Shown here: piece after piece, positions 1 to 22,215 of the stretch
Layout: each line of letters starts with the position of its first letter
Numbering within the stretch: the first letter of the stretch is position 1
NCBI GenBank assembly: GCA_965223845.1
Contig: CBDCXR010000004.1
Location: 5,536,001 to 5,600,000 of the forward strand
Reading direction: 5' to 3'
Origin: Planctomycetota bacterium
Lineage (GTDB): Bacteria; Planctomycetota; UBA8108; SXIK01
DNA: 64,000 nucleotides
The notes under the pieces: generated by a model
The model's input: only the letters and a program-made list of their open reading frames with translations
Databases searched by the model: none
Told to the model about the DNA's origin: nothing
Translations under genes and position numbers: made by a program

Positions 1-393
1 GACGTGGAGATGACCGTAGTCCGGATTCCCGCGAATTTCGAACTCCACTCCCGAGCTCCTCCGGTTCGATCCGCGTGCAGCGAGAGGACGACGGCCGCGA
101 GTCTACGGCGGGCCGTCGCGGAGATCAACGCGCGGACCAGCCGGTCACCGCGCGCTAGCGAAATCGCTGCGGCGAGTTGCGATCCGGAGAGGGACCATCT
201 CGTCTTCGTTCCAAGCGCCACACCCCGAACTTCATCTCCCCCGGACGAGCGCCGAACCGAGACGAGGACCGGGCGTAGACTAGCCGCGGCGGCCCGCTCG
301 CAGCACCGGCTCCGATTCACTACAATCCCGAAGCCGTTCGCGCGACGCTTGCGAACGGATCGCGCCCGGAGAATCCGCAGCGAGAGAGCGGTC

Positions 394-2583
394 ATGTCGG
401 TCGAACAGGAGAATCTCCCACTTCGGGATGCGGATGCGGACGCGGTCTCGGCGAGCGCCGCGGAACCGCGGAGCGCGGCGGTGCGGGAGGCGTTCGCTCG
501 GGCGCGCCACGTCGCGATCGTGCGGCTCGGGAGCATCGGCGATGTCGTCGCGACCGTCCCGCTCGCCTGGTACCTCCGCGACGTGCTCGCGTCGGGGACG
601 AGGCTCTCGTGGATCGTTCACTCCGCCTCAGCCTCGCTTCTTCACGGCCTCGGCGCACTCGACGACGTGATCGAGCTTCCCAAGGGCTCGGTCCTGCGCT
701 CGATCCCGCGCTGGCGTCGCGCGCTCGCAGACCGCGGCATCGATTGCACCCTGGACGTTCACGGCAACCTGAAGAGCGGGATCGTCAGCCGCCTCACCGG
801 CGCCTCGCGGCGCATCGGGTTCCATCGCCGCGACTGCCGCGAACATTGGAACCCGCTGTTTACGACCGACAAGCTGCCCCCGCTGCCGTCGCCAAACAAG
901 ACCAGGCGAGCGAACGCGATCGCCGGTCTCCTCGGCATCGCGGCCCCAAGCCCGCGATTCGATCTTCACTTTTCGGCTGAAGAGCGCGAGCGAGCGGCGC
1001 GAATCGTGCGCGAACTCGCTCCGAACGAAGAGTCGATCGCCGCGCTTCAACTCGGCCGCGCCGAAGACGTTCGCAGCTGGCCGATCGAGAACTACGCGGC
1101 GCTCGCGGAACGGCTCCTCGCGTCGAGACGGCGCGTCCTCGTTCTCGGCGGCCCTCCCGAGGTAGAGACCGGACGCCGCGTGCGCGAGCGTCTCGGCGAC
1201 CGTCCGGGGCTCTCCTACGAGATCAACTCGCTCAGTCTCCGCGAAGTCGGCGCCGTGTTCGAGACGATCGCGGAGCGAACGCAAGATCGAGGAGCTTACG
1301 TGGGCGGCGATTCCGGATGCCTCCACATCGCCGCCGCGTGCGGTCTACAGACGACGGGCCTCTTCGGGCCGCAAGATCCCGATCGGACGGCTCCCATCGG
1401 CGAGCACGTCACGTCGATCATCCATCGAGACGCGGCGCCGTGCATCCCGTGTGCGCGCCGGGAGTGCGCGCACTCCACCTGGCGGTACTGCATGGAGGAG
1501 ATCTCGCCGGAGGAGGTCGAGCGCGCGGTGAACGGTACTCTTCGCACGCCGAAGGACGACGGGACGAAGACGCGCGGAGCTCGCGCCGCGGCCCGCACAC
1601 CGTCCGCTCGGCGGACGCCGATCGTCACCCTAAGCGTACTCGCCGTCGCGATCGCCGTCGCCGTCGTCCGCTGGATCGTCGGCGTCTTCGTCGCGGGACC
1701 CGCAACGAGTGCTCCGTCTTCGTTCCCCGGGCTCCTGAGTCTCGTGCCCGCGGAGAAGCTTCCGGGCGGAATCGAGGCCTTCGTCACGGCGATCGCGGCG
1801 GGCGTCGCTCTCCTTCCCGCCGCGGCGATCGCGCAGCGACTCGGTACGCCCGCGACCGGGATCCTCACGGCGATCGCGCTCGGTGCCTCGGCTCTCGTGC
1901 TCGATCCGGCCGCGCTCGGCCTCTCCTCCTTCGTCCTCACTGCCCTCGTCCACACCACGCTCTTCCTCTACGTCGCGTCCGATCTCAAAGGCGCAACGAG
2001 CAGACGAACGCGCTTCGCATCGGTGGCGACGGCACTCGGCGCTTTCGCCGTCGGTGGCGCCCCGGGTCTACTCGTACCCGCGCTCGGCGTCATCGCGTTT
2101 CGGTGCGCCGAGAAAGACGTCCGGAGGCTCTTTCGTCCGCGGGCACTCGCGGTCGCCGCGGGAACGATCGCCGCGGCGGCGGGAATCACTGCTGGTCTGT
2201 ACGCTCTCGCGCGCGCACGCGGAATGGACGCGAGCTGGCTCGACGCGCTCACGCCGATCACCTGGCGCCGCGACGATGTCCAGTCGCCGCCGTGGCAGTA
2301 CGCCGTGTGGATCGCGCGCTTCGGGCTTCCGTTCGTCGTCTTCGCACCGTTCGCGCTCGTCGCCCACCTGCGCAACCGCCGATATCGCGAAGACCTCGGC
2401 TTCGCCGACCGACAATGGCGTTTCCCGAAAGCGGTGTTTCTCGCCGGCTTTGTACTTCTCAGTTTGTTGCCGGTGAAATCCATGGCGATCGTTGCGGCGC
2501 TCGCGCCGTCGCTCGCCATTCTCGTCGCGGCCTGGATCGAGTTTGTGTGGCGGCGCAGGTTTCCGAACTACATTCCGAAATAG
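394..2583 (+). CDS. Glycosyltransferase family 9 (heptosyltransferase-like) fused to a C-terminal ArnT/PMT-like membrane domain
   Basis: GT9 motifs VRLGSIGDVV, DVHGNLKS, GGDSGCLHIAAA, GLFGP; many TM segments follow, with PPWQY and SLLPVK...APSLAIL. ATG at 394 preferred over the ORF-track start at 4. Confidence 0.8.
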   Translation: MSVEQENLPLRDADADAVSASAAEPRSAAVREAFARARHVAIVRLGSIGDVVATVPLAWYLRDVLASGTRLSWIVHSASASLLHGLGALDDVIELPKGSVLRSIPRWRRALADRGIDCTLDVHGNLKSGIVSRLTGASRRIGFHRRDCREHWNPLFTTDKLPPLPSPNKTRRANAIAGLLGIAAPSPRFDLHFSAEERERAARIVRELAPNEESIAALQLGRAEDVRSWPIENYAALAERLLASRRRVLVLGGPPEVETGRRVRERLGDRPGLSYEINSLSLREVGAVFETIAERTQDRGAYVGGDSGCLHIAAACGLQTTGLFGPQDPDRTAPIGEHVTSIIHRDAAPCIPCARRECAHSTWRYCMEEISPEEVERAVNGTLRTPKDDGTKTRGARAAARTPSARRTPIVTLSVLAVAIAVAVVRWIVGVFVAGPATSAPSSFPGLLSLVPAEKLPGGIEAFVTAIAAGVALLPAAAIAQRLGTPATGILTAIALGASALVLDPAALGLSSFVLTALVHTTLFLYVASDLKGATSRRTRFASVATALGAFAVGGAPGLLVPALGVIAFRCAEKDVRRLFRPRALAVAAGTIAAAAGITAGLYALARARGMDASWLDALTPITWRRDDVQSPPWQYAVWIARFGLPFVVFAPFALVAHLRNRRYREDLGFADRQWRFPKAVFLAGFVLLSLLPVKSMAIVAALAPSLAILVAAWIEFVWRRRFPNYIPK

Positions 2584-2601
2584 CGGCCTCGGAAACGAAT
2601 G

Positions 2602-2631
2602 TGAAGATCTTCTCAGATCCTCACCGATACT
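2602..2631 (+). promoter_or_regulatory. Putative promoter TGAAGATC...ACCGATACT (sigma28-like -10), copy 1
   Basis: Same two boxes recur at 2751/2773 with an identical 22-nt offset, while the spacer differs. Confidence 0.5.
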
Positions 2632-2633
2632 TA

Positions 2634-2689
2634 GGTTCCCCCCACACTGCTCGGGACTCTCACCGCCGGTGAGAGTCCCGTCTTTTTTT
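2634..2689 (+). ncRNA. Candidate small RNA copy 1 (C-rich 5' segment + intrinsic terminator)
   Basis: TTCCCCCCACACTGCT, perfect 13-bp hairpin 2652-2680, T-tract; homologous to 2783-2843. Confidence 0.55.
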
Positions 2690-2750
2690 GCCTCACCTCC
2701 TCCGGTGAGAACGCGACCGCCACTCCGATTCGGAACTCGCGCCGCGAAGT

Positions 2751-2780
2751 TGAAGATCCGTATGCGCGAACACCGATACT
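2751..2780 (+). promoter_or_regulatory. Putative promoter TGAAGATC...ACCGATACT, copy 2
   Basis: Duplicate of the boxes at 2602-2631 with the same spacing. Confidence 0.5.
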
Positions 2781-2782
2781 AA

Positions 2783-2843
2783 GAATCCCCCCCACAACTG
2801 CTCGGGACTCCCGCCGCTCGGTGAGAGTCCCGTTTTTTTTTTT
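2783..2843 (+). ncRNA. Candidate small RNA copy 2
   Basis: ATCCCCCCCACAACTGCT, hairpin 2803-2832, T11 tract. Confidence 0.55.
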
Positions 2844-3009
2844 GCGCTCTCGCGGATCTTGTTCCGATTCTCCTCGATCGCGACCCTCCACGGTGGCATT
2901 CGCCGACCGTCGTCGATATCGGCTTCCCCAAGACCGTTCGAGTCTCTCGCCGGCGGGCGTCCGATTCGATGGGAAAGCGAGGAGCCTTGCCGAAGCGGAT
3001 TCGCGGCCC

Positions 3010-4293
3010 TCAGTCGCCCGCGGCGGCTTCCTTCTTCCCGCCCACGGAGATGAGATGCGAGACGGTCCGAAGATAGAGACGTCCCGAGGCGACGGCGGGT
3101 GTCGCACGGCTCAGCTCACCGACATCGTTCTGCGCGACGATCTTGAACTCGTCCGCCGTCGCCGACACGACGAAGAGCTCGCCTTCGTGACTCATGGCGT
3201 AGAGATTCCCTTGGATCCAAATCGGTGAACCGGTGAACGCGCCGGTGACTCGGCCCCGCCACTTCTCGTCACCCGTGGCCGCGTCGATGCAGGCGACGAC
3301 CCCCTTGTCGCTCCAGAGAAAGAGACGGCCGTCCTTGTAGAGAGACGTAGGAACGTAGGGGATGGACTGGCGGCGGATGTAGGCAACGTGCGATTCGGTG
3401 ACGTCGCCCTTCCCGCCCGCGCGAACGGCGACGAGGTAGTTGCCGCCGCCGCCGGATCCGCAGGTGCCGAAAACGAGACCCGCGCCGAATGTCGGCGATG
3501 AGACCGAACGCTTGTCGAATACGTTCGCGCCCCAGTTGACCGTTCCGGTCTTCGGGTCGAGGCTGCACACGCCGTTCGCTCCGCTCGTCACGAGCAGCTC
3601 CGGTCCGGACTCTCCGTCGTAGACGCACGGAGTGCCGTACGCGGTTCGCCGGCTGGGCCGAGGCGTTTTCCACCGGACGTCACCCGAGATTCGATCGAGC
3701 GCGATCACGTGGCTCTCGCGCTCGAGCTGCTCGTAGCCGATAACGACGAGATCCTTGTAGAGCATCGGCGACGAGCCAAAGCCGTGCTGACTCTCGAAGC
3801 GGCCGAGATCGGTATTCCACTTTCGCGTACCGGAGTGGTCGAAGGCAGCGAGATACGCCGTCTTCTCTTTGCAGAACGACACGTAGACGAAGTCCGCATC
3901 GACCGCGGGCGTGCTCGAGGCGTAGCTGCTCCAGCGATGGTTCCGGTACTCCCCGCCTTCGAGCTCTTTCGTCCAGACGATGTCTCCGCGCTTCGTCTCG
4001 AGACAGAGAACGAGCCGATTCGCGCCATCTTTCGGCGCGGTCGTCAGGAAGATCTTCTCTCCCCAAACCACCGGCGAGGAGTGCCCTTCGCCCGGAAGCT
4101 CGACGCGCCAGTTGTAGTCGCTCGCGGTGAACTCGACCGGAATGCCTTCGGCGGGACTGATCCCGGTACCGTTCGGCCCCCGAAATCGAGTCCACTCCTG
4201 CGCGCGTGCAGCGGAGGAAGCGAAGAGCAACGCAACGAGAGCGGCCACGGACGGGATAGCGGCGATGGCCTCGCCGCGCTTCGGAAGATTCAT
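3010..4293 (-). CDS. Secreted PQQ-binding-like beta-propeller (BamB-like) protein
   Basis: Signal peptide, WTRFRGPNGTG, GHSSPVVWG, repeated DxxTGxxxW blades; ATG at 4293. Confidence 0.9.
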   Translation of the reverse strand: MNLPKRGEAIAAIPSVAALVALLFASSAARAQEWTRFRGPNGTGISPAEGIPVEFTASDYNWRVELPGEGHSSPVVWGEKIFLTTAPKDGANRLVLCLETKRGDIVWTKELEGGEYRNHRWSSYASSTPAVDADFVYVSFCKEKTAYLAAFDHSGTRKWNTDLGRFESQHGFGSSPMLYKDLVVIGYEQLERESHVIALDRISGDVRWKTPRPSRRTAYGTPCVYDGESGPELLVTSGANGVCSLDPKTGTVNWGANVFDKRSVSSPTFGAGLVFGTCGSGGGGNYLVAVRAGGKGDVTESHVAYIRRQSIPYVPTSLYKDGRLFLWSDKGVVACIDAATGDEKWRGRVTGAFTGSPIWIQGNLYAMSHEGELFVVSATADEFKIVAQNDVGELSRATPAVASGRLYLRTVSHLISVGGKKEAAAGD

Positions 4294-4438
4294 GCTGTGA
4301 GCCTCGGGGAAGATTCGCAGGGGATCGACGCGCCGCGAGCCACGACGCGGCGACACTCATTCTCCGCGAGCCTGACGCGGGCGGTCAACGACTGTCCACG
4401 CCGCAACGAGCTCGTCGCGAGCCGCCCGGAGGCGGGGC

Positions 4439-6268
4439 TCAACGCTCGCGGAGTCGCTTCGCGACGGAAGCGTAGATTCGCTGAATCACCCCGGCCTCAG
4501 CGACGCTGGCGAGCTCGGTTTGGTCGAGGATCGCTCGGCGCACGCGCTCGATGCGGCCGAGCTGATCGCGTCCTGCGACCGCGACGATGTGACGGTCGCG
4601 CACCCAGGACCAGGCGTCGGTATAGATGGTGCGCTTCTCGGCCCAGTTGTCGAGCACGGCGAGAAGATCCTCCGCCGTGAGCGTCCGGTCATCCTCCGCG
4701 AGGAAATCGAGCCGCTGCGCAAACGGTCGCATTCGATCGGCGGCCTCGGCCGAGTCCGAGCGAATGAGCTCCTCGAGCTCCGCCGCGCTCAGATCCAGCT
4801 CGCGTCCGTAGCGGCGGAGATAGCTCTGGATCATCCTTCCCGTCCACTCTTCGCGAGCGGAGTCTTTGAGCTGAATCACGCGCGCGAGCGCGGTCGGGGT
4901 GCAGACCTCGAGCAGCGGCCCGACAACCGCTCGGCGAATCTTCTCGTTCTCGTCGCGGAGAACGGGAGCGAGCGAGGACTCGGCCTCCTCGCCGACGAGG
5001 AGAACTAGCGTCCGCGACGCCGCTGCGACCACACGAACTTCGCCGGTTGTCTCGAGGATGCGTTCGGCCGCGCGACGACCGCGGGCATCGCGGATGAAGC
5101 TGAGGATTTCGAGCACGAGGAGATCGTCTCCCCGTCCCGCGAGCGCGCCGGCGTACCGAAGCACGTGCGGGAGTGCCGGCTCGAAGTCGAGGTACGCGAG
5201 CGCGTAGACGAGTCCGCGGACGAGCGGCGACGTCATATCGCCGTTCCCATCCGCGCGTTCCGCATCCGCCGGCCAGCGCCGCTCGAGCGCGGCGAGGAGA
5301 AGCGGTCCCAGTTCGTCGCTCGCGCGGAGGCCGACGACCCAGCGGAGGAGAAGACTCCACCGGACCGGCTCGTCGACTCCCTCGAGGCGAATCAAGCGAC
5401 CCGGAGGAATCCGCAGGAGCCCGAGAATGGCCGAGCTCGCATCCGCCGCTGCTTCGTGTTCGGACGGAACGGCGCGCAGCACCTCGCGGAGAAGAATGAA
5501 CGCGGAGCCGAGCTCCTCGGGCGCGAACTCGACGAGCTGAAAGAACGTCGCGAGAATCGGGACGGACGAGACGCGATGCTCTTCCCAGAGCGCGCGCGCT
5601 TCGGCGAGCGTCGCGGGGACCGAGACGGTGGGCGGCGGCGCTTCCGGCGGGGCTTCCTCCGGCGGCGGCGCGACGACGGGAGCCGGATCTCCCGACGGAC
5701 GCGACGGGCTCGCGTGATCCTCCGGCTCGTTATCGCGAGGCTGCGGGGCGGGAGGAGGCGCCGCGCCGTCAGCTTCGACCGGCGAGAGAGGTTCGTTTCT
5801 TCGCTGCGAGCCCGTCAGATCCGCCGTGCGATCGATCGAACGGGAGTCGACCGGAGGCGGTCCACCTCCCGCGCAAGAGAGGAGCGCGACGGAAGAGAGG
5901 ACGATCCCCGCCCAGAGCGAGAATCCGCACCTGAGAACGACCGGCGCTCGACGCGATCGAGACCCGCCCCGGGCAGAGGACGACGAGCCGTCCGAGGGGC
6001 GGCCAGCGCCGCACGGGCGAATCGGAGTCGGCTGCGAGACTCGCTCCGTCGGGCCGAGGCCGGGGGCGTCAGAACCACGCGCAGAGCGAGGACGGGGCGA
6101 TCTCGGGGAGCCGACCGACGGGATCGAGTCGACGAGATGACGATCCAACGAATCCCGCCGAAGCCAGAACGGGGGGTTGAAACAGCCTCGAACAGTCACG
6201 GAAGCGATGCCCCTCAGGTGGCGACCGAATACGATCGAACCGGGCCGATGGCGCGGTCGTACGTCCAT
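4439..6268 (-). CDS. Probable lipoprotein with Pro-rich linker and HEAT-like repeats (start uncertain)
   Basis: Hydrophobic stretch ending LLSC, Pro-rich linker, HEAT-like LRDENEKIRRAVVGPL. The 5' part of the 894-aa ORF is a shadow of the + strand esterase. Confidence 0.6.
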   Translation of the reverse strand: MDVRPRHRPGSIVFGRHLRGIASVTVRGCFNPPFWLRRDSLDRHLVDSIPSVGSPRSPRPRSARGSDAPGLGPTERVSQPTPIRPCGAGRPSDGSSSSARGGSRSRRAPVVLRCGFSLWAGIVLSSVALLSCAGGGPPPVDSRSIDRTADLTGSQRRNEPLSPVEADGAAPPPAPQPRDNEPEDHASPSRPSGDPAPVVAPPPEEAPPEAPPPTVSVPATLAEARALWEEHRVSSVPILATFFQLVEFAPEELGSAFILLREVLRAVPSEHEAAADASSAILGLLRIPPGRLIRLEGVDEPVRWSLLLRWVVGLRASDELGPLLLAALERRWPADAERADGNGDMTSPLVRGLVYALAYLDFEPALPHVLRYAGALAGRGDDLLVLEILSFIRDARGRRAAERILETTGEVRVVAAASRTLVLLVGEEAESSLAPVLRDENEKIRRAVVGPLLEVCTPTALARVIQLKDSAREEWTGRMIQSYLRRYGRELDLSAAELEELIRSDSAEAADRMRPFAQRLDFLAEDDRTLTAEDLLAVLDNWAEKRTIYTDAWSWVRDRHIVAVAGRDQLGRIERVRRAILDQTELASVAEAGVIQRIYASVAKRLRER

Positions 6269-6475
6269 AATAACCCCTTCGGCGCGGCGACGGATGCTTC
6301 GTGCGCTGGATACGACGTTCGGGGAACATCGCGTGCTTCGGCCGCTCGGTTCGGCACTGCGCGCTCGTGCGGAGATTATCACTCGTTCTCCTCGTGGAGA
6401 CGGTCGACCCGTGTCGATGGAAGAGTGGCGCGTCGCCATTCGCCACTCACCTGACGCATTCACTCGGATCCCAGC

Positions 6476-7741
6476 TTGAACGCTTCGTTTTCTGTCTTCA
6501 CCCAAGGTCGACGACGCGCCGGATTCGCTGCGCTCGGCAGCGTCGGTCTCATCGTGCTCTTTCTCTCCGGGGAGATCGCCGCGAGAGGCGCTCCGCCGCC
6601 GCTCGCCGGGCCGGAAGAGACAACGGACGAAGTCCGGGTGATGTTCCGGGTCGCCGTTCCCGATGGGACGGACCCGCCGCTCTACCTCGCGGGCAATCTG
6701 CGGGCGCTGGGTCGGTGGCGGCCGAACGGAGTTGCGCTCGAGCGGACGAGCGACGACGGCATCTGGACGGCCACCGTGGCTCTCCCTCGCGGCGAGGCAC
6801 TCGAGTACAAGGTGACGCGCGGGAGCTGGGAATCGGTCGAAGTGAACGCTCACGGCGAGAACATCGCCAATCGCCGGCTCGAGCTCAGCGACGACACCGA
6901 GGTGACGATCGAGGTCGCCGATTGGGCTGAGCCGGAACCCCCGCCGCCGCCCGTCGAGCTTCGCGGCCGCATCGAGACGCACGCGAAAGTTGAAAGCCGT
7001 TTCGTCGAGACGGCTCGACCGATCCATGTGTATCTCCCGCCCAAGTACAACGAGAACTCGACGCGACGCTACCGCGTGCTCTATCTCCAGGACGGGCAGA
7101 ACGTGTTCGCCGCCCTCGGGCACCGGCGAGCGTCGTGGCGCGCCGATGTGATCGTCGAGTCACTGATCGCGAAGGGCCGGATCGATCCGATCATCATCGT
7201 GGCCGTCGGAAATACGAACCGGCGCATGGCCGAGTACACGCCGTCGCGTAGCGAGAAGCTGAACGCGGGCGGCGACGGCGAGCGTTACGCTCGCTTCCTC
7301 GCGGAGGAACTGAAGCCGTTCATCGATCGGACCTACCGCACTCGTCCGGAGAGCGAGTACAATGCGATTGCCGGGTCGTCGCTCGGCGGGTTGGTGTCGC
7401 TCTACACGGTGTGGAAACACCCGACCGCGTTCTCGCAGTGTGCTGCGCTCTCGCCGTCTCTTTGGTGGAACGACGCCCACCTTCTCGCCGCGTTCGAGAA
7501 CGACCACGCGTGGATGCGCCGCGTTCGCTTTTGGGTCGACATGGGCACCGCGGAGGGGCCGTCGACCGAGGCGGTCAATCCGAACGTGAAGCAACTTCGT
7601 CGCCTCGCCTCGATCTTCGACGCGGCGGCACTCGTCCCGGGACGAGACTACTACTACTTCGAAATCCAGGACGGGAAGCACCACGAGACCGCCTGGTCGC
7701 AGAGATTTGACAAAGTCGTCCTCTTTCTCTTCGGCAAGTGA
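6476..7741 (+). CDS. CBM20 domain + alpha/beta-hydrolase esterase
   Basis: CBM20-like LYLAGNLRALGRW...EYKVTRGSW; YLQDGQN; GSSLGG nucleophile elbow; HHETAW. Confidence 0.85.
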   Translation: MNASFSVFTQGRRRAGFAALGSVGLIVLFLSGEIAARGAPPPLAGPEETTDEVRVMFRVAVPDGTDPPLYLAGNLRALGRWRPNGVALERTSDDGIWTATVALPRGEALEYKVTRGSWESVEVNAHGENIANRRLELSDDTEVTIEVADWAEPEPPPPPVELRGRIETHAKVESRFVETARPIHVYLPPKYNENSTRRYRVLYLQDGQNVFAALGHRRASWRADVIVESLIAKGRIDPIIIVAVGNTNRRMAEYTPSRSEKLNAGGDGERYARFLAEELKPFIDRTYRTRPESEYNAIAGSSLGGLVSLYTVWKHPTAFSQCAALSPSLWWNDAHLLAAFENDHAWMRRVRFWVDMGTAEGPSTEAVNPNVKQLRRLASIFDAAALVPGRDYYYFEIQDGKHHETAWSQRFDKVVLFLFGK

Positions 7742-9116
7742 CTCTTCGGCGCTCCGGCTCTCGTTCGAGGGGGGTACGCTGCTCCTTGCGGGGCGGGAAG
7801 AGTCCATCGCAGCGCTCGATCTGCCCGGCTGCATCTTCGACTCCCGCGTCGATACCTGGCGCGCGCCGGCGCGCTACTATCGCGAGATCGTTTCGGAGTT
7901 GACGACGGCCGGCGTCGACTACGAAGACGAAGCGCGCGCGTACGAGCAGCTCGAGTTCGAGCTTCAGATCGACCGCGAGCCGTTTCCCCACCAAAGCGAA
8001 TCCGTCGCCGAGTGGTGGAACGCCGGCGGCCGCGGCGTCGTCGTTCTCCCTACCGGGGCCGGAAAGACCTTCGTCGCGCAGCTCGCGATGCTCCAAGCGC
8101 GCCGGAGCACTCTCGTCGTCACGCCGACGATCGACCTCATGCAGCAATGGTACGGAGTCCTCGGGAGCGGCTTCGGGATGGACGTCGGTCTCGTCGGCGG
8201 CGGCTATTACGAGATCCTCCCCGTAACCGTGACTACGTACGACTCCGCGTACCTCCACATGGAGCGCTTCGGGAACCGGTTCGGATTCATCGTCTTCGAC
8301 GAATGCCACCACCTCCCGGGTCCGTCCTACCTCCTCGCCGCCGAATCGAGCGTCGCGCCGTTCCGACTCGGGCTTACGGCCACGCTCGAGCGGGAAGACG
8401 GCGAGGAGTGGCGGCTCCGGGATGCGATCGGCGAGACGGTGTACCGCCAGGAGATTCGCGAACTCGCCGGGGAGTATCTCTCCGAATACGAAACCGTGCA
8501 CGTCAACGTCCCGCTCTCGGGCGAAGAGCGCGAGCGCTACCAGCGGAGTCGCGAAATCTACCGCGGGTTCGTGCGCGCAAACGGGATCCGCATCGGCGGC
8601 CCCGGCGGCTGGGCGCAGTTCCTGATGCTGAGCTCGCAGAGCGAGCGCGGGCGAGAGGCGTTTCTCGCCTATCGCGAGCAAAAGACGATCGCCCAGGCGT
8701 CCGAGGCGAAGCTACGGGCGCTCGAGAAGCTACTCGCGCAGCACCGAACCGATCGCGTTCTGCTCTTTACGAACGACAACGAGACGGTGTACCGGATCTC
8801 ACGAAAGTTCCTGATTCCGGCGATCACTCACCAAACGAAAGTGAAGGAGCGCCACGAGATCCTGCAGAAGTTCAACCGCGGCGAGTACCCGTTCGTCGTG
8901 ACGTCGAAGGTGCTCAACGAAGGGGTCGATGTTCCCGCGGCGAACGTCGGCGTCGTTCTGTCGGGATCGGGGAGCGTCCGCGAGCACGTCCAGCGGCTCG
9001 GCCGCATTCTTCGACGGGCTGAAGGGAAGCGCGCAATTCTCTACGAGCTGGTCGCCGAGGACACCGCCGAAGAGTTCGTGAGCACGCGCCGGAGACAGCA
9101 CAGTGCTTACCGCTGA
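7707..9116 (+). CDS. XPB/Rad25-like SF2 helicase
   Basis: LPTGAGKT, DECHH, GLTAT, LNEGVD, QRLGRILR; overlaps the downstream DUF790 gene. Confidence 0.9.
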   Translation: MTKSSSFSSASDSSALRLSFEGGTLLLAGREESIAALDLPGCIFDSRVDTWRAPARYYREIVSELTTAGVDYEDEARAYEQLEFELQIDREPFPHQSESVAEWWNAGGRGVVVLPTGAGKTFVAQLAMLQARRSTLVVTPTIDLMQQWYGVLGSGFGMDVGLVGGGYYEILPVTVTTYDSAYLHMERFGNRFGFIVFDECHHLPGPSYLLAAESSVAPFRLGLTATLEREDGEEWRLRDAIGETVYRQEIRELAGEYLSEYETVHVNVPLSGEERERYQRSREIYRGFVRANGIRIGGPGGWAQFLMLSSQSERGREAFLAYREQKTIAQASEAKLRALEKLLAQHRTDRVLLFTNDNETVYRISRKFLIPAITHQTKVKERHEILQKFNRGEYPFVVTSKVLNEGVDVPAANVGVVLSGSGSVREHVQRLGRILRRAEGKRAILYELVAEDTAEEFVSTRRRQHSAYR

Positions 9117-21477: not shown

Positions 21478-22215
21478 ATGAGATCCCCGGTCAGCGAGAA
21501 GCGAGTCCTCATCGTCGGCGGCGGAACGGGAGTCGGACGCGCCACCGCGCTCGCGTTCGCAGAGGCGGGCGCCACCGTTGCCATCGCCGGACGGCGTGAA
21601 GAGAAGCTGCGCGAAGTCGCGAAGACATTCACAGGGAATCCGGCAATCCAGCTCCGTCGATGCGACACTTCGGATCGGGACGACGCCCGCGCGCTCGTCG
21701 AATGGGCGACGGCGGAAATGGGCGGAGTCGACATTCTGGTTCAGAGCGCCGGGATCAACATCCGCCGCCGCATGATGTCGGACATCGACCCCGACGATTG
21801 GGACCGCGTTCTCCGCGTCAATGCGACCGGAGCGTTCAACACGATCCATGCCGTCCTCCCGCAGATGCGTGAGCGCGGCCGCGGCGACATCATCAACATC
21901 TCCTCGGTCGCGGGGAAGCGGGCTGTGCTCCTCGGCGGCGTCGCGTACAACGCCTCGAAGTTCGCGATGTCGGCCCTCGGAACGAGCGTCGGGCTCGAAG
22001 CCGGCAAGGACGGCGTGCGCGTGACGAACATTTATCCCGGTGAAATCAACACCCCGATTCTCGACGAGCGACCGAACCCGGTGAGCGACGAGCACCGCGC
22101 GCGCATCCTTCAGCCGGAAGACGTCGCGGCCGCCGTTCTCCTCGCCGCGTCGCTTCCGCCCGAGGCCCACATACCCGAGCTCGTGATCAAGCCGACGATT
22201 CAGGAGTTCGCGTAG
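21478..22215 (+). CDS. SDR family oxidoreductase
   Basis: GGGTGVG, NISS, YNASK. Confidence 0.93.
   Translation: MRSPVSEKRVLIVGGGTGVGRATALAFAEAGATVAIAGRREEKLREVAKTFTGNPAIQLRRCDTSDRDDARALVEWATAEMGGVDILVQSAGINIRRRMMSDIDPDDWDRVLRVNATGAFNTIHAVLPQMRERGRGDIINISSVAGKRAVLLGGVAYNASKFAMSALGTSVGLEAGKDGVRVTNIYPGEINTPILDERPNPVSDEHRARILQPEDVAAAVLLAASLPPEAHIPELVIKPTIQEFA

Follow-up and report, generated by a model that had tools for sequence, protein, structure and literature searches.

A tandem pair of candidate sibling small-RNA genes with a sigma-28-like promoter layout in a Planctomycetota genome

The present study concerns a short intergenic region in a stretch of 64,000 nucleotides (nt) from a Planctomycetota bacterium (assembly GCA_965223845.1, contig CBDCXR010000004.1, positions 5,536,001 to 5,600,000 of the forward strand; hereafter the window, whose coordinates are used unless a contig is named). 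Two copies of one unit were observed by sequence inspection on the plus strand, at 2602-2689 and 2751-2843, and each comprises, in order, an upstream box (TGAAGATC), 14 nt of spacer, a downstream box (CCGATACT), 6 further nt, an unpaired C-rich tail, a GC hairpin of 12-13 base pairs (bp) and a T-run. An earlier reading of the letters by themselves (the sequence-only reading) had described tandem small-RNA (sRNA) genes here, each with two boxes at a 22-nt offset, a C-rich segment, a stem and a T-tract, and all of these parts are present where it had placed them. The features of the region are as follows.

394-2583, plus strand: upstream gene for a glycosyltransferase family 9 (heptosyltransferase-like) protein, with its stop codon 19 nt before the first box of unit 1
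2602-2609, plus strand: unit 1 upstream box TGAAGATC, putative -35 element, 8/8 identical to unit 2
2610-2623, plus strand: unit 1 spacer, 14 nt, diverged, 2/14 identical to unit 2
2624-2631, plus strand: unit 1 downstream box CCGATACT, putative -10 element, within the conserved block CACCGATACT at 2622-2631
2634-2689, plus strand: predicted sRNA 1, about 50-56 nt, 5' end placed by distance from the -10 box and 3' end by the terminator
2636-2651, plus strand: unit 1 unpaired C-rich 5' tail UUCCCCCCACACUGCU, putative seed, from predicted fold and conservation
2638-2643, plus strand: unit 1 C6 run, from the sequence
2652-2680, plus strand: unit 1 terminator hairpin, 13 bp with a 3-nt loop, predicted fold of -25.5 kcal/mol, z-score -5.36
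2681-2689, plus strand: unit 1 T-run TCTTTTTTT, 9 nt, from the sequence and a terminator scan
2751-2758, plus strand: unit 2 upstream box TGAAGATC, putative -35 element, identical to unit 1
2759-2772, plus strand: unit 2 spacer, 14 nt, diverged, from the segment comparison
2773-2780, plus strand: unit 2 downstream box CCGATACT, putative -10 element, identical to unit 1
2783-2843, plus strand: predicted sRNA 2, about 53-61 nt, with an estimated 5' end
2785-2802, plus strand: unit 2 unpaired C-rich 5' tail AUCCCCCCCACAACUGCU, putative seed, from predicted fold and conservation
2787-2793, plus strand: unit 2 C7 run, from the sequence
2803-2832, plus strand: unit 2 terminator hairpin, 12 bp with one C.A mismatch and a 4-nt loop, -21.6 kcal/mol, z-score -4.43
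2833-2843, plus strand: unit 2 T-run, 11 T, from the sequence
3010-4293, minus strand: convergent downstream gene for a BamB/PQQ beta-propeller protein, from the gene call

The two copies have changed very unevenly. Both boxes are identical between the units (8/8 each, and 10/10 for the second when the preceding CA is included as CACCGATACT), and the distance from box to box is exactly 22 nt in both, whereas only 2 of the 14 spacer positions agree, both of them being the CA that abuts the -10 box. Beyond the -10 box, identity is 3/6 in the next 6 nt, 12/16 with two gap columns in the C-rich tail, 11/13 in the 5' stem arm, 3/4 in the loop and 13/13 in the 3' stem arm. The similarity of the copies begins directly at the first box and ends just past the T-run, and the conserved segment thus corresponds to exactly one promoter-to-terminator unit. 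Because the spacers are as different as unrelated sequences, the duplication is too old to explain the intact boxes. The simplest reading of this pattern is that the boxes, at their fixed offset, and the transcribed body are under purifying selection, as would be expected of a promoter together with its RNA product. The only neutral alternative left is a same-length patch replacement of the spacer alone, which is unlikely. The sequence-only reading had stated that spacer and loop diverge; the first part agrees with these counts, and the second does not, since most of what it took for loop is upper stem.

Both hairpins are considerably more stable than expected from their composition, as none of 200 shuffled sequences folded as well as hairpin 1 and only 1 of 200 as well as hairpin 2, and 7-11 T come after each of them. 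The 16-18 nt before the hairpin are predicted to be unpaired in both units, and in unit 1 this holds for the minimum-energy as well as the centroid structure. The stems differ at two positions of the 5' arm, where U-A is changed to C.A and A-U to G.U.

The two-box arrangement is also rare. The pattern has 2 exact matches in the window, compared with a chance expectation of 0.43 even when up to 3 mismatches are allowed, and without mismatch it occurs at only these two places in the 7.93-Mb genome. When 1-2 mismatches are allowed, 4 more matches appear in the genome, compared with 1 for the backwards control, and the one of the four that was located lies within a gene. Looser searches with the body of the unit, together with a covariance model, revealed no third copy in the 7.93-Mb genome. 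With only two copies, the element is not a generic dispersed repeat of the repetitive extragenic palindromic (REP) type, a possibility that the sequence-only reading had named as a threat to its own interpretation. In addition, contigs from 2 of 4 DNA runs, which are possibly the source data, cover the whole stretch without any difference or variation, indicating that the tandem is not an assembly artefact.

With regard to genomic context, the flanking genes converge and the next gene called on the plus strand starts at 7707, about 5 kb away, and the units are therefore not leaders of a downstream gene. No tRNA or tmRNA was found in positions 1-8000 of the window. The units are orphan promoter-to-terminator units of about 50-60 nt, and the anatomy of a small-RNA gene that had been proposed from the letters is borne out by the promoter-like boxes, the unpaired conserved tail, the terminator and the lack of a same-strand gene for about 5 kb. 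A coding reading was considered and rejected: the frames across the units are Arg/Ser/Pro-rich low-complexity nonsense, and the copies differ by single-base indels.

Several minor sequence features were observed around the units. Positions 2601-2624 hold an imperfect 24-nt palindrome, GTGAAGATC..GATCCTCAC, which covers the first box and spacer of unit 1 only and was listed as a minus-strand hairpin. A small hairpin at 2692-2709 (CTCACC-TCCTCC-GGTGAG) reuses the upper stem of terminator 1 around a CCUCC loop, positions 2729-2745 match the 5' arm of unit 2 at 14/16, and a weak alignment of 45 columns to unit 1 lies at about 2914-2960. The scores of these unit-like fragments were reached by 3-10 of 300 shuffles, and the covariance model gave them 0.3-2.1 bits. 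Such fragments could be remnants of earlier copies. We do not claim the stretch behind unit 2 as a third copy in decay, as 3/300 shuffles reach its alignment and the model gives 2.1 bits with an E-value of 1.3 (2889-2970).

The common promoters of this genome differ from the boxes of the units. Hexamers oriented towards genes revealed a common -10 element of TA(C/G)AAT (TACAAT, 128 vs 50 in the two orientations upstream of genes; TAGAAT, 182 vs 87), with G-rich positions -2 and -1 ahead of the hexamer and a C at +1 after it, and a -35 signal of common promoters is hardly visible genome-wide. A consensus scan detected no sigma-70-like site in 2400-3200. The candidate sigma-70 reading TGAAGA-18-GATACT was rejected, because the scan gave no such site and GATACT is not preferentially oriented towards genes (50 vs 62).

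The genome encodes a FliA/WhiG-type sigma factor (261 bits, cut-off 189.6), and its gene stands in a row with those for FlhB, FlhA, an SRP54-type GTPase (FlhF-like) and a MinD/ParA-type ATPase (FlhG-like). The anti-sigma gene region offers an anchor for the promoter type: upstream of flgM (PF04316, 34.4 bits, cut-off 25) the cleanest site of the genome, TAAAGTTC-N13-CCGATAA, was found at a distance of 62 nt. Among 28 genomes of the class with an flgM match, (TAAAG, up to 1 mismatch)-N15-17-CCGATA was observed upstream of flgM on the coding strand in 19 and on the opposite strand in none, and shuffled sequences gave 0.1 on average and 2 at most. From these sites, the predicted sigma-28 promoter of the lineage is (T/C)(A/C)AAG-N16/17-(G/A)CCGATA(A/G/T). 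This motif agrees with the textbook sigma-28 promoter, TAAA-N15-GCCGATAA. It also agrees with the sigma-28 -10 element given as CGATwt in the available text of PMC4626219. In the own genome, the two-block motif with up to 1 mismatch in TAAAG and a spacing of 15-18 nt occurs at 53 sites, 34 of them intergenic, and the version with exact TAAAG at 9 sites, 7 of them intergenic, where the intergenic share of the genome is 13% by rough gene calls. A position matrix trained on the flgM promoters of 10 other genera, a small training set, picked out clearly genuine sites of this genome at high scores, with 16 of 20 matches of at least 18 bits being intergenic.

The units resemble this motif in several respects. 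The AAG core of the lineage -35 block is also found in TGAAGATC, and the CCGATA core of CCGATACT is exact in both units and is the -10 core of the flgM promoters in the 19 of 28 genomes. The 17-nt spacing of the units occurs in 5/19 flgM sites, and the flgM sites of genus g5 carry an A ahead of CCGATA, as do the units. The deviations are equally consistent between the copies. The flanks of the core, A before and C after, differ from the GCCGATAA type, and TGAAG stands 17 nt from CCGATA, whereas a G at the second position was observed in 0/19 flgM sites, which have TAAAG, TCAAG or CAAAG at 16-17 nt. Sites of the TGAAG type in the own genome are intergenic in 5 of 9 cases, the units themselves accounting for 2 of the 5. 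Judged from these comparisons, the predicted promoter of the units is of sigma-28 type in layout, and would be either a FliA site that is weak or departs from the consensus, or a site used by a different factor.

Herein, we propose that the pair represents free-standing, transcribed small-RNA genes, a reading to which we assign a probability of roughly 0.6. In the proposed mechanism, the units would be independent small-RNA genes in a tandem duplication ("siblings"), and a separate non-housekeeping promoter of the form TGAAGATC-N14-CCGATACT would drive each of them. Transcription would start about 5-8 nt past the second box and end at the GC hairpin plus U-run, giving an RNA of about 50-60 nt whose first 16-18 nt, (U)UCCCCCC(C)ACA(A)CUGCU, would be single-stranded and present a pairing surface for G-rich stretches of target mRNAs. 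The identity of the boxes beside a diverged spacer points to selection acting on them, as a promoter would require. Our first guess at the factor that would read this promoter is the holoenzyme with FliA (sigma-28), or a factor of closely similar function, an idea made reasonable by the presence of FliA and FlgM and by the flgM motif at 19/28 versus 0/28. Transcription by sigma-28 itself is nevertheless a tentative proposal, possible but held with less than even confidence. If the sRNAs are real, the C-rich 5' tail would somewhat more probably than not be a base-pairing seed, and base-pairing sibling sRNAs with a 5' C-rich seed are the most likely mechanism. The pair would then probably be a new, lineage-restricted sibling pair of a known kind of regulator.

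Searches for known families were consistent with the claim that the element is undescribed. No match to Rfam 15 at gathering thresholds was obtained across the whole window, and a permissive search returned noise only (RybB, 14.4 bits against a gathering threshold of 40, with E = 4; MIR5387, 14.6 against 69). The sequence-only reading had gone further and spoken of a family, which is not supported by the comparison with other genomes. A covariance model of the boxes, tail and hairpin (R1) gave matches with E up to 1 in 20 of 151 genomes including the own, and with laxer filters in 6 of 21 genomes of the order including the own. Inspection of 11 of these alignments revealed four 3' ends of tRNA genes (T-arm, acceptor and CCA) followed by a terminator, three bare terminators, and four full-length alignments lacking the boxes or the C-run. 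The model gave no match in the three other genomes of the family. A strict pattern applied to 101 genomes revealed no homologue, although this pattern was too strict and caught only unit 2 in the own genome. A pattern scan of viral contigs gave one AT-rich chance match lacking a hairpin, and plasmid BLAST gave no match. When a flanking protein was compared with metagenome and genome contigs, only matches of 29-41% identity were found, including an uncultured Planctomycetales assembly and a Latescibacteria assembly, and no close relative of the locus was among them. The genus consists of a single genome in the collection, and the absence elsewhere therefore says little about close relatives. 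For now, the "family" comprises two paralogues in one genome.

Several of the results weigh against the proposed explanation. With 261 nt as BLAST query and 40 relatives searched, the sole match was the own genome (1/41), and after inspection of the R1 alignments no homologue remained in 150 relatives. The nearest and only clear ortholog of the upstream gene, in a genome of the same family (G003), is 50% identical, and the syntenic site there holds no unit, having a gap of about 75 nt as read by eye and a different convergent gene. Comparison of the two copies showed no compensatory double change or covariation in the stem. With regard to the promoter, the matrix scores of the units are 10.4 and 9.0 bits, no better than background sites, with ranks of 825 and 1595 among 2,599 matches above 8 bits and of 178 and 320 among the 495 intergenic ones; the loss of score comes from bases absent in the training sites and common to both units, namely the G of TGAAG, the C after CCGATA and the A before it. 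Matrix matches of 8-12 bits are 18-19% intergenic, near background, and scrambled-block controls of the loose two-block motif are 23-48% intergenic, so that its 64% represents only moderate enrichment. The likeness to sigma-28 that had been noted from CCGATA therefore holds for the core, the presence of FliA and the flgM motif, and fails at the matrix scores. With regard to pairing, the tails gave 34 and 42 duplexes of -20 kcal/mol or better against 4,871 start regions, compared with 39 and 47 for the reversed tails, and the earlier suggestion that the C-rich tail pairs with G-rich ribosome-binding sites is thus not favoured over the reversed-seed control.

Other results concern the targets and the promoter motif. 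Runs of G6 are roughly three times as frequent in the Shine-Dalgarno window (28 in -20 to -10, compared with about 8-17 per 10 nt further upstream), and GTGGGGGG occurs only 4 times, at scattered places. The flgM gene, the fliA operon and the neighbouring genes rank 348-4531 of 4872 in predicted pairing, none of them being outstanding. A six-frame search of the own genome detected no Hfq domain, suggesting that the mechanism would be Hfq-independent or would use another chaperone. A second anchor for the sigma-28 motif failed, as three flagellin genes of genome G005 have no good site within 400 nt, and the upstream region of flgM in G005 also lacks the motif.

The deviations of the boxes bear directly on the choice between FliA and another reader. 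The sRNAs might be real and yet be read by another holoenzyme or depend on an activator, the boxes then being a distinct promoter class that shares a CGATA-like core; this variant lies within the proposal of sRNA genes, and we consider it rather unlikely. The low matrix scores and the deviations from all training sites that both units share are in its favour, as are the lack of orientation bias of CCGATACT upstream of genes (4 vs 5) and the many more sigma genes of this genome, in which 27 matches to the FliA model were found, 26 of them below the cut-off. However, no other known sigma consensus was recognised in the boxes, the heat-shock, extracytoplasmic function and sigma-54 types having been judged by inspection, and the scan with a promoter tool gave no sigma-70 site. 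Moreover, no third promoter of the exact type precedes a sigma gene, the one that was located among the four matches with 1-2 mismatches lying within a gene, and no sigma gene lies downstream of a site in the motif-site list.

The remaining explanations dispense with separate sRNA genes. In one of them, the units are a double terminator of the glycosyltransferase gene, duplicated without a promoter of its own and carrying the boxes as passengers. The position is suggestive in this respect, because unit 1 starts 19 nt past a same-strand stop codon and its hairpin, 69 nt past that stop, could be the gene's own terminator, which counts as a further point against separate sRNA genes; intrinsic terminators are also common in this genome, T6 being the most strongly oriented hexamer upstream of genes (191 vs 84). 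However, passengers should decay like the spacer, which kept 2/14 positions, while the boxes kept 8/8 at the fixed 22-nt offset, and the unpaired C-rich tail is conserved though a terminator does not need it. The earlier argument that a mere double terminator would not retain the boxes is upheld by these numbers, and we regard this explanation as quite unlikely. Very unlikely, in our opinion, is a decaying non-functional tandem repeat, or a set of sites acting at the DNA level (operators or structural repeats) with no RNA of their own. The unit-like fragments nearby (2698-2710, 2729-2745 and about 2914-2960; 3-10/300 shuffles) and the confinement of the element to one genome would fit such an origin, but the fragments are marginal, with 2.1 bits by the covariance model for 2889-2970, and two copies are too few for a REP-like family. 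The boxes, moreover, are neither palindromic nor repeated, unlike usual operator half-sites, and a strong hairpin with a U-run on one strand only is anatomy of the RNA level. Free-standing sRNA genes thus remain our preferred reading of the pair.

Among described systems, the nearest analogue of these candidate sRNA genes is the pair CjNC1 (CJnc10) and CjNC4 (CJnc170) of Campylobacter jejuni, and its architecture is nearly the same as that of the units. According to the available text of PMC4626219, these are sigma-28-dependent noncoding RNA paralogs of less than 50 nt that are identical at 37/44 positions, with a conserved 5' part predicted to pair with the 5' untranslated regions (UTRs) of targets, a 3' stem-loop terminator, and Hfq-independent repression in a reporter system. 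The two cases are likened by description, and nothing suggests common descent: CjNC1 and CjNC4 belong to another phylum, lie at separate loci rather than in tandem, and have a FliA dependence established by experiment, whereas the present units are known from sequence alone. Sigma-28-dependent sRNAs have also been described in E. coli, where they are UTR-derived, in the accessible part of PMC10578931, in which a text search found no promoter consensus. The present units differ from these in standing free between convergent genes.

Sibling sRNAs offer a second comparison. OmrA and OmrB are encoded in tandem and carry 5' seeds. Both OmrA/OmrB (PMC13473878) and the Neisseria sRNAs (PMC5362039) are treated as siblings in the parts of these papers available to us. 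Such pairs resemble the units in being duplicated genes with near-identical pairing regions and their own terminators; they differ in having unrelated sequences and different promoters, and the enterobacterial ones are Hfq-dependent, whereas no Hfq was found here. RybB is an sRNA under an alternative sigma factor, with a seed at its extreme 5' end followed by a terminator. Although RybB (RF00110) gave the best alignment to unit 2 in Rfam, it was at noise level and the units are not members of this family. In sRNAs of the RoxS/RsaE type, C-rich motifs in loops mask G-rich ribosome-binding sites, whereas the C-run of the units lies in an unpaired 5' tail. RoxS and RsaE are given as C-rich-motif sRNAs in the accessible part of PMC8216469. 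By any test run, the pair is a member of none of the compared systems.

The role of FliA in this bacterium might extend beyond the flagellum. The flagellar set looks partial, with FliG, FlhB, FlhA, FlhF-like and FlhG-like proteins, FliA and FlgM detected at 7502713-7514738 and 7481503-7481778 of contig C4 of the own genome (G000). A six-frame search of this genome gave no match to the flagellin N and C domains, FliS, or the N- and C-terminal signature domains of rod and hook proteins, a result that is provisional given the short models and a completeness of 92%. The flagellin N domain had no match in the three other genomes of the family, whereas an order-level relative has three. Eight sigma-28-type sites on contig C4, at 7054267-7054295(-), 7676077-7676106(-), 6879925-6879954(-), 7185469-7185498(-), 4655501-4655529(+), 231686-231715(+), 1426310-1426338(-) and 7731298-7731324(+), lie upstream of non-motility genes, and most of them are among the better matrix sites. 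The genes behind them encode FtsK, a 69-residue open reading frame followed by a Xer-type recombinase, alanine racemase, an M14 carboxypeptidase, an RRM-domain RNA-binding protein, a glycogen phosphorylase-like protein, GlgB and nucleoside diphosphate kinase. These sites are hints that FliA may control more than motility here. In the flagellum-less chlamydiae, sigma-28 times a cell-cycle or differentiation programme. By analogy, the pair could be the RNA arm of a rewired sigma-28 circuit, that is, the post-transcriptional output of a cell-cycle or differentiation programme timed by FliA. We put this forward as a long shot; if true, no earlier case of regulatory RNAs under a developmental sigma factor would be known from the phylum.

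Regulatory RNAs are almost uncharted in the Planctomycetes-Verrucomicrobia-Chlamydiae group, with 8 sRNAs annotated across all its members in a survey of 2022, compared with 345 for the Proteobacteria (PMC9029176, Table 1, from the available part). A compact, clearly delimited pair with a recognisable non-housekeeping promoter would be an easy first experimental handle and would help to define the promoter classes of the lineage. Independently of the fate of the sRNA proposal, both the sigma-28 motif taken from the flgM regions and the housekeeping -10 consensus remain usable in annotation.

Other places in the genome were also observed. At 2207300-2208596 (minus strand) of contig C4, a rough gene caller placed no co-directional gene in the first 1 kb or so behind a near-consensus TAAAGTTC-N12-GCCGATAG; possible readings of this stretch are an extended 5' UTR, a gene that the caller overlooked and a long non-coding RNA. 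At 1611510-1611610 (minus strand) of the same contig, a GCCGATACC motif is followed by an RNA-like stretch of about 85 nt with CCCUCCUCC, next by a 15-bp hairpin (loop CUCCCCUCCCA) and finally by a U-run, at -43.4 kcal/mol. The stretch lies directly downstream of a co-directional gene, and may be the terminator of that gene or another C-rich sRNA. Finally, contig C1 (15,005 nt) has a G+C content of 48%, compared with 65% for the chromosome, and contig C3 carries at 21500-21593 the same tRNA 3' end and terminator as contig C4 at 2287439-2287534; a foreign or extrachromosomal element and the copy of a repeat are possible explanations of these small contigs.

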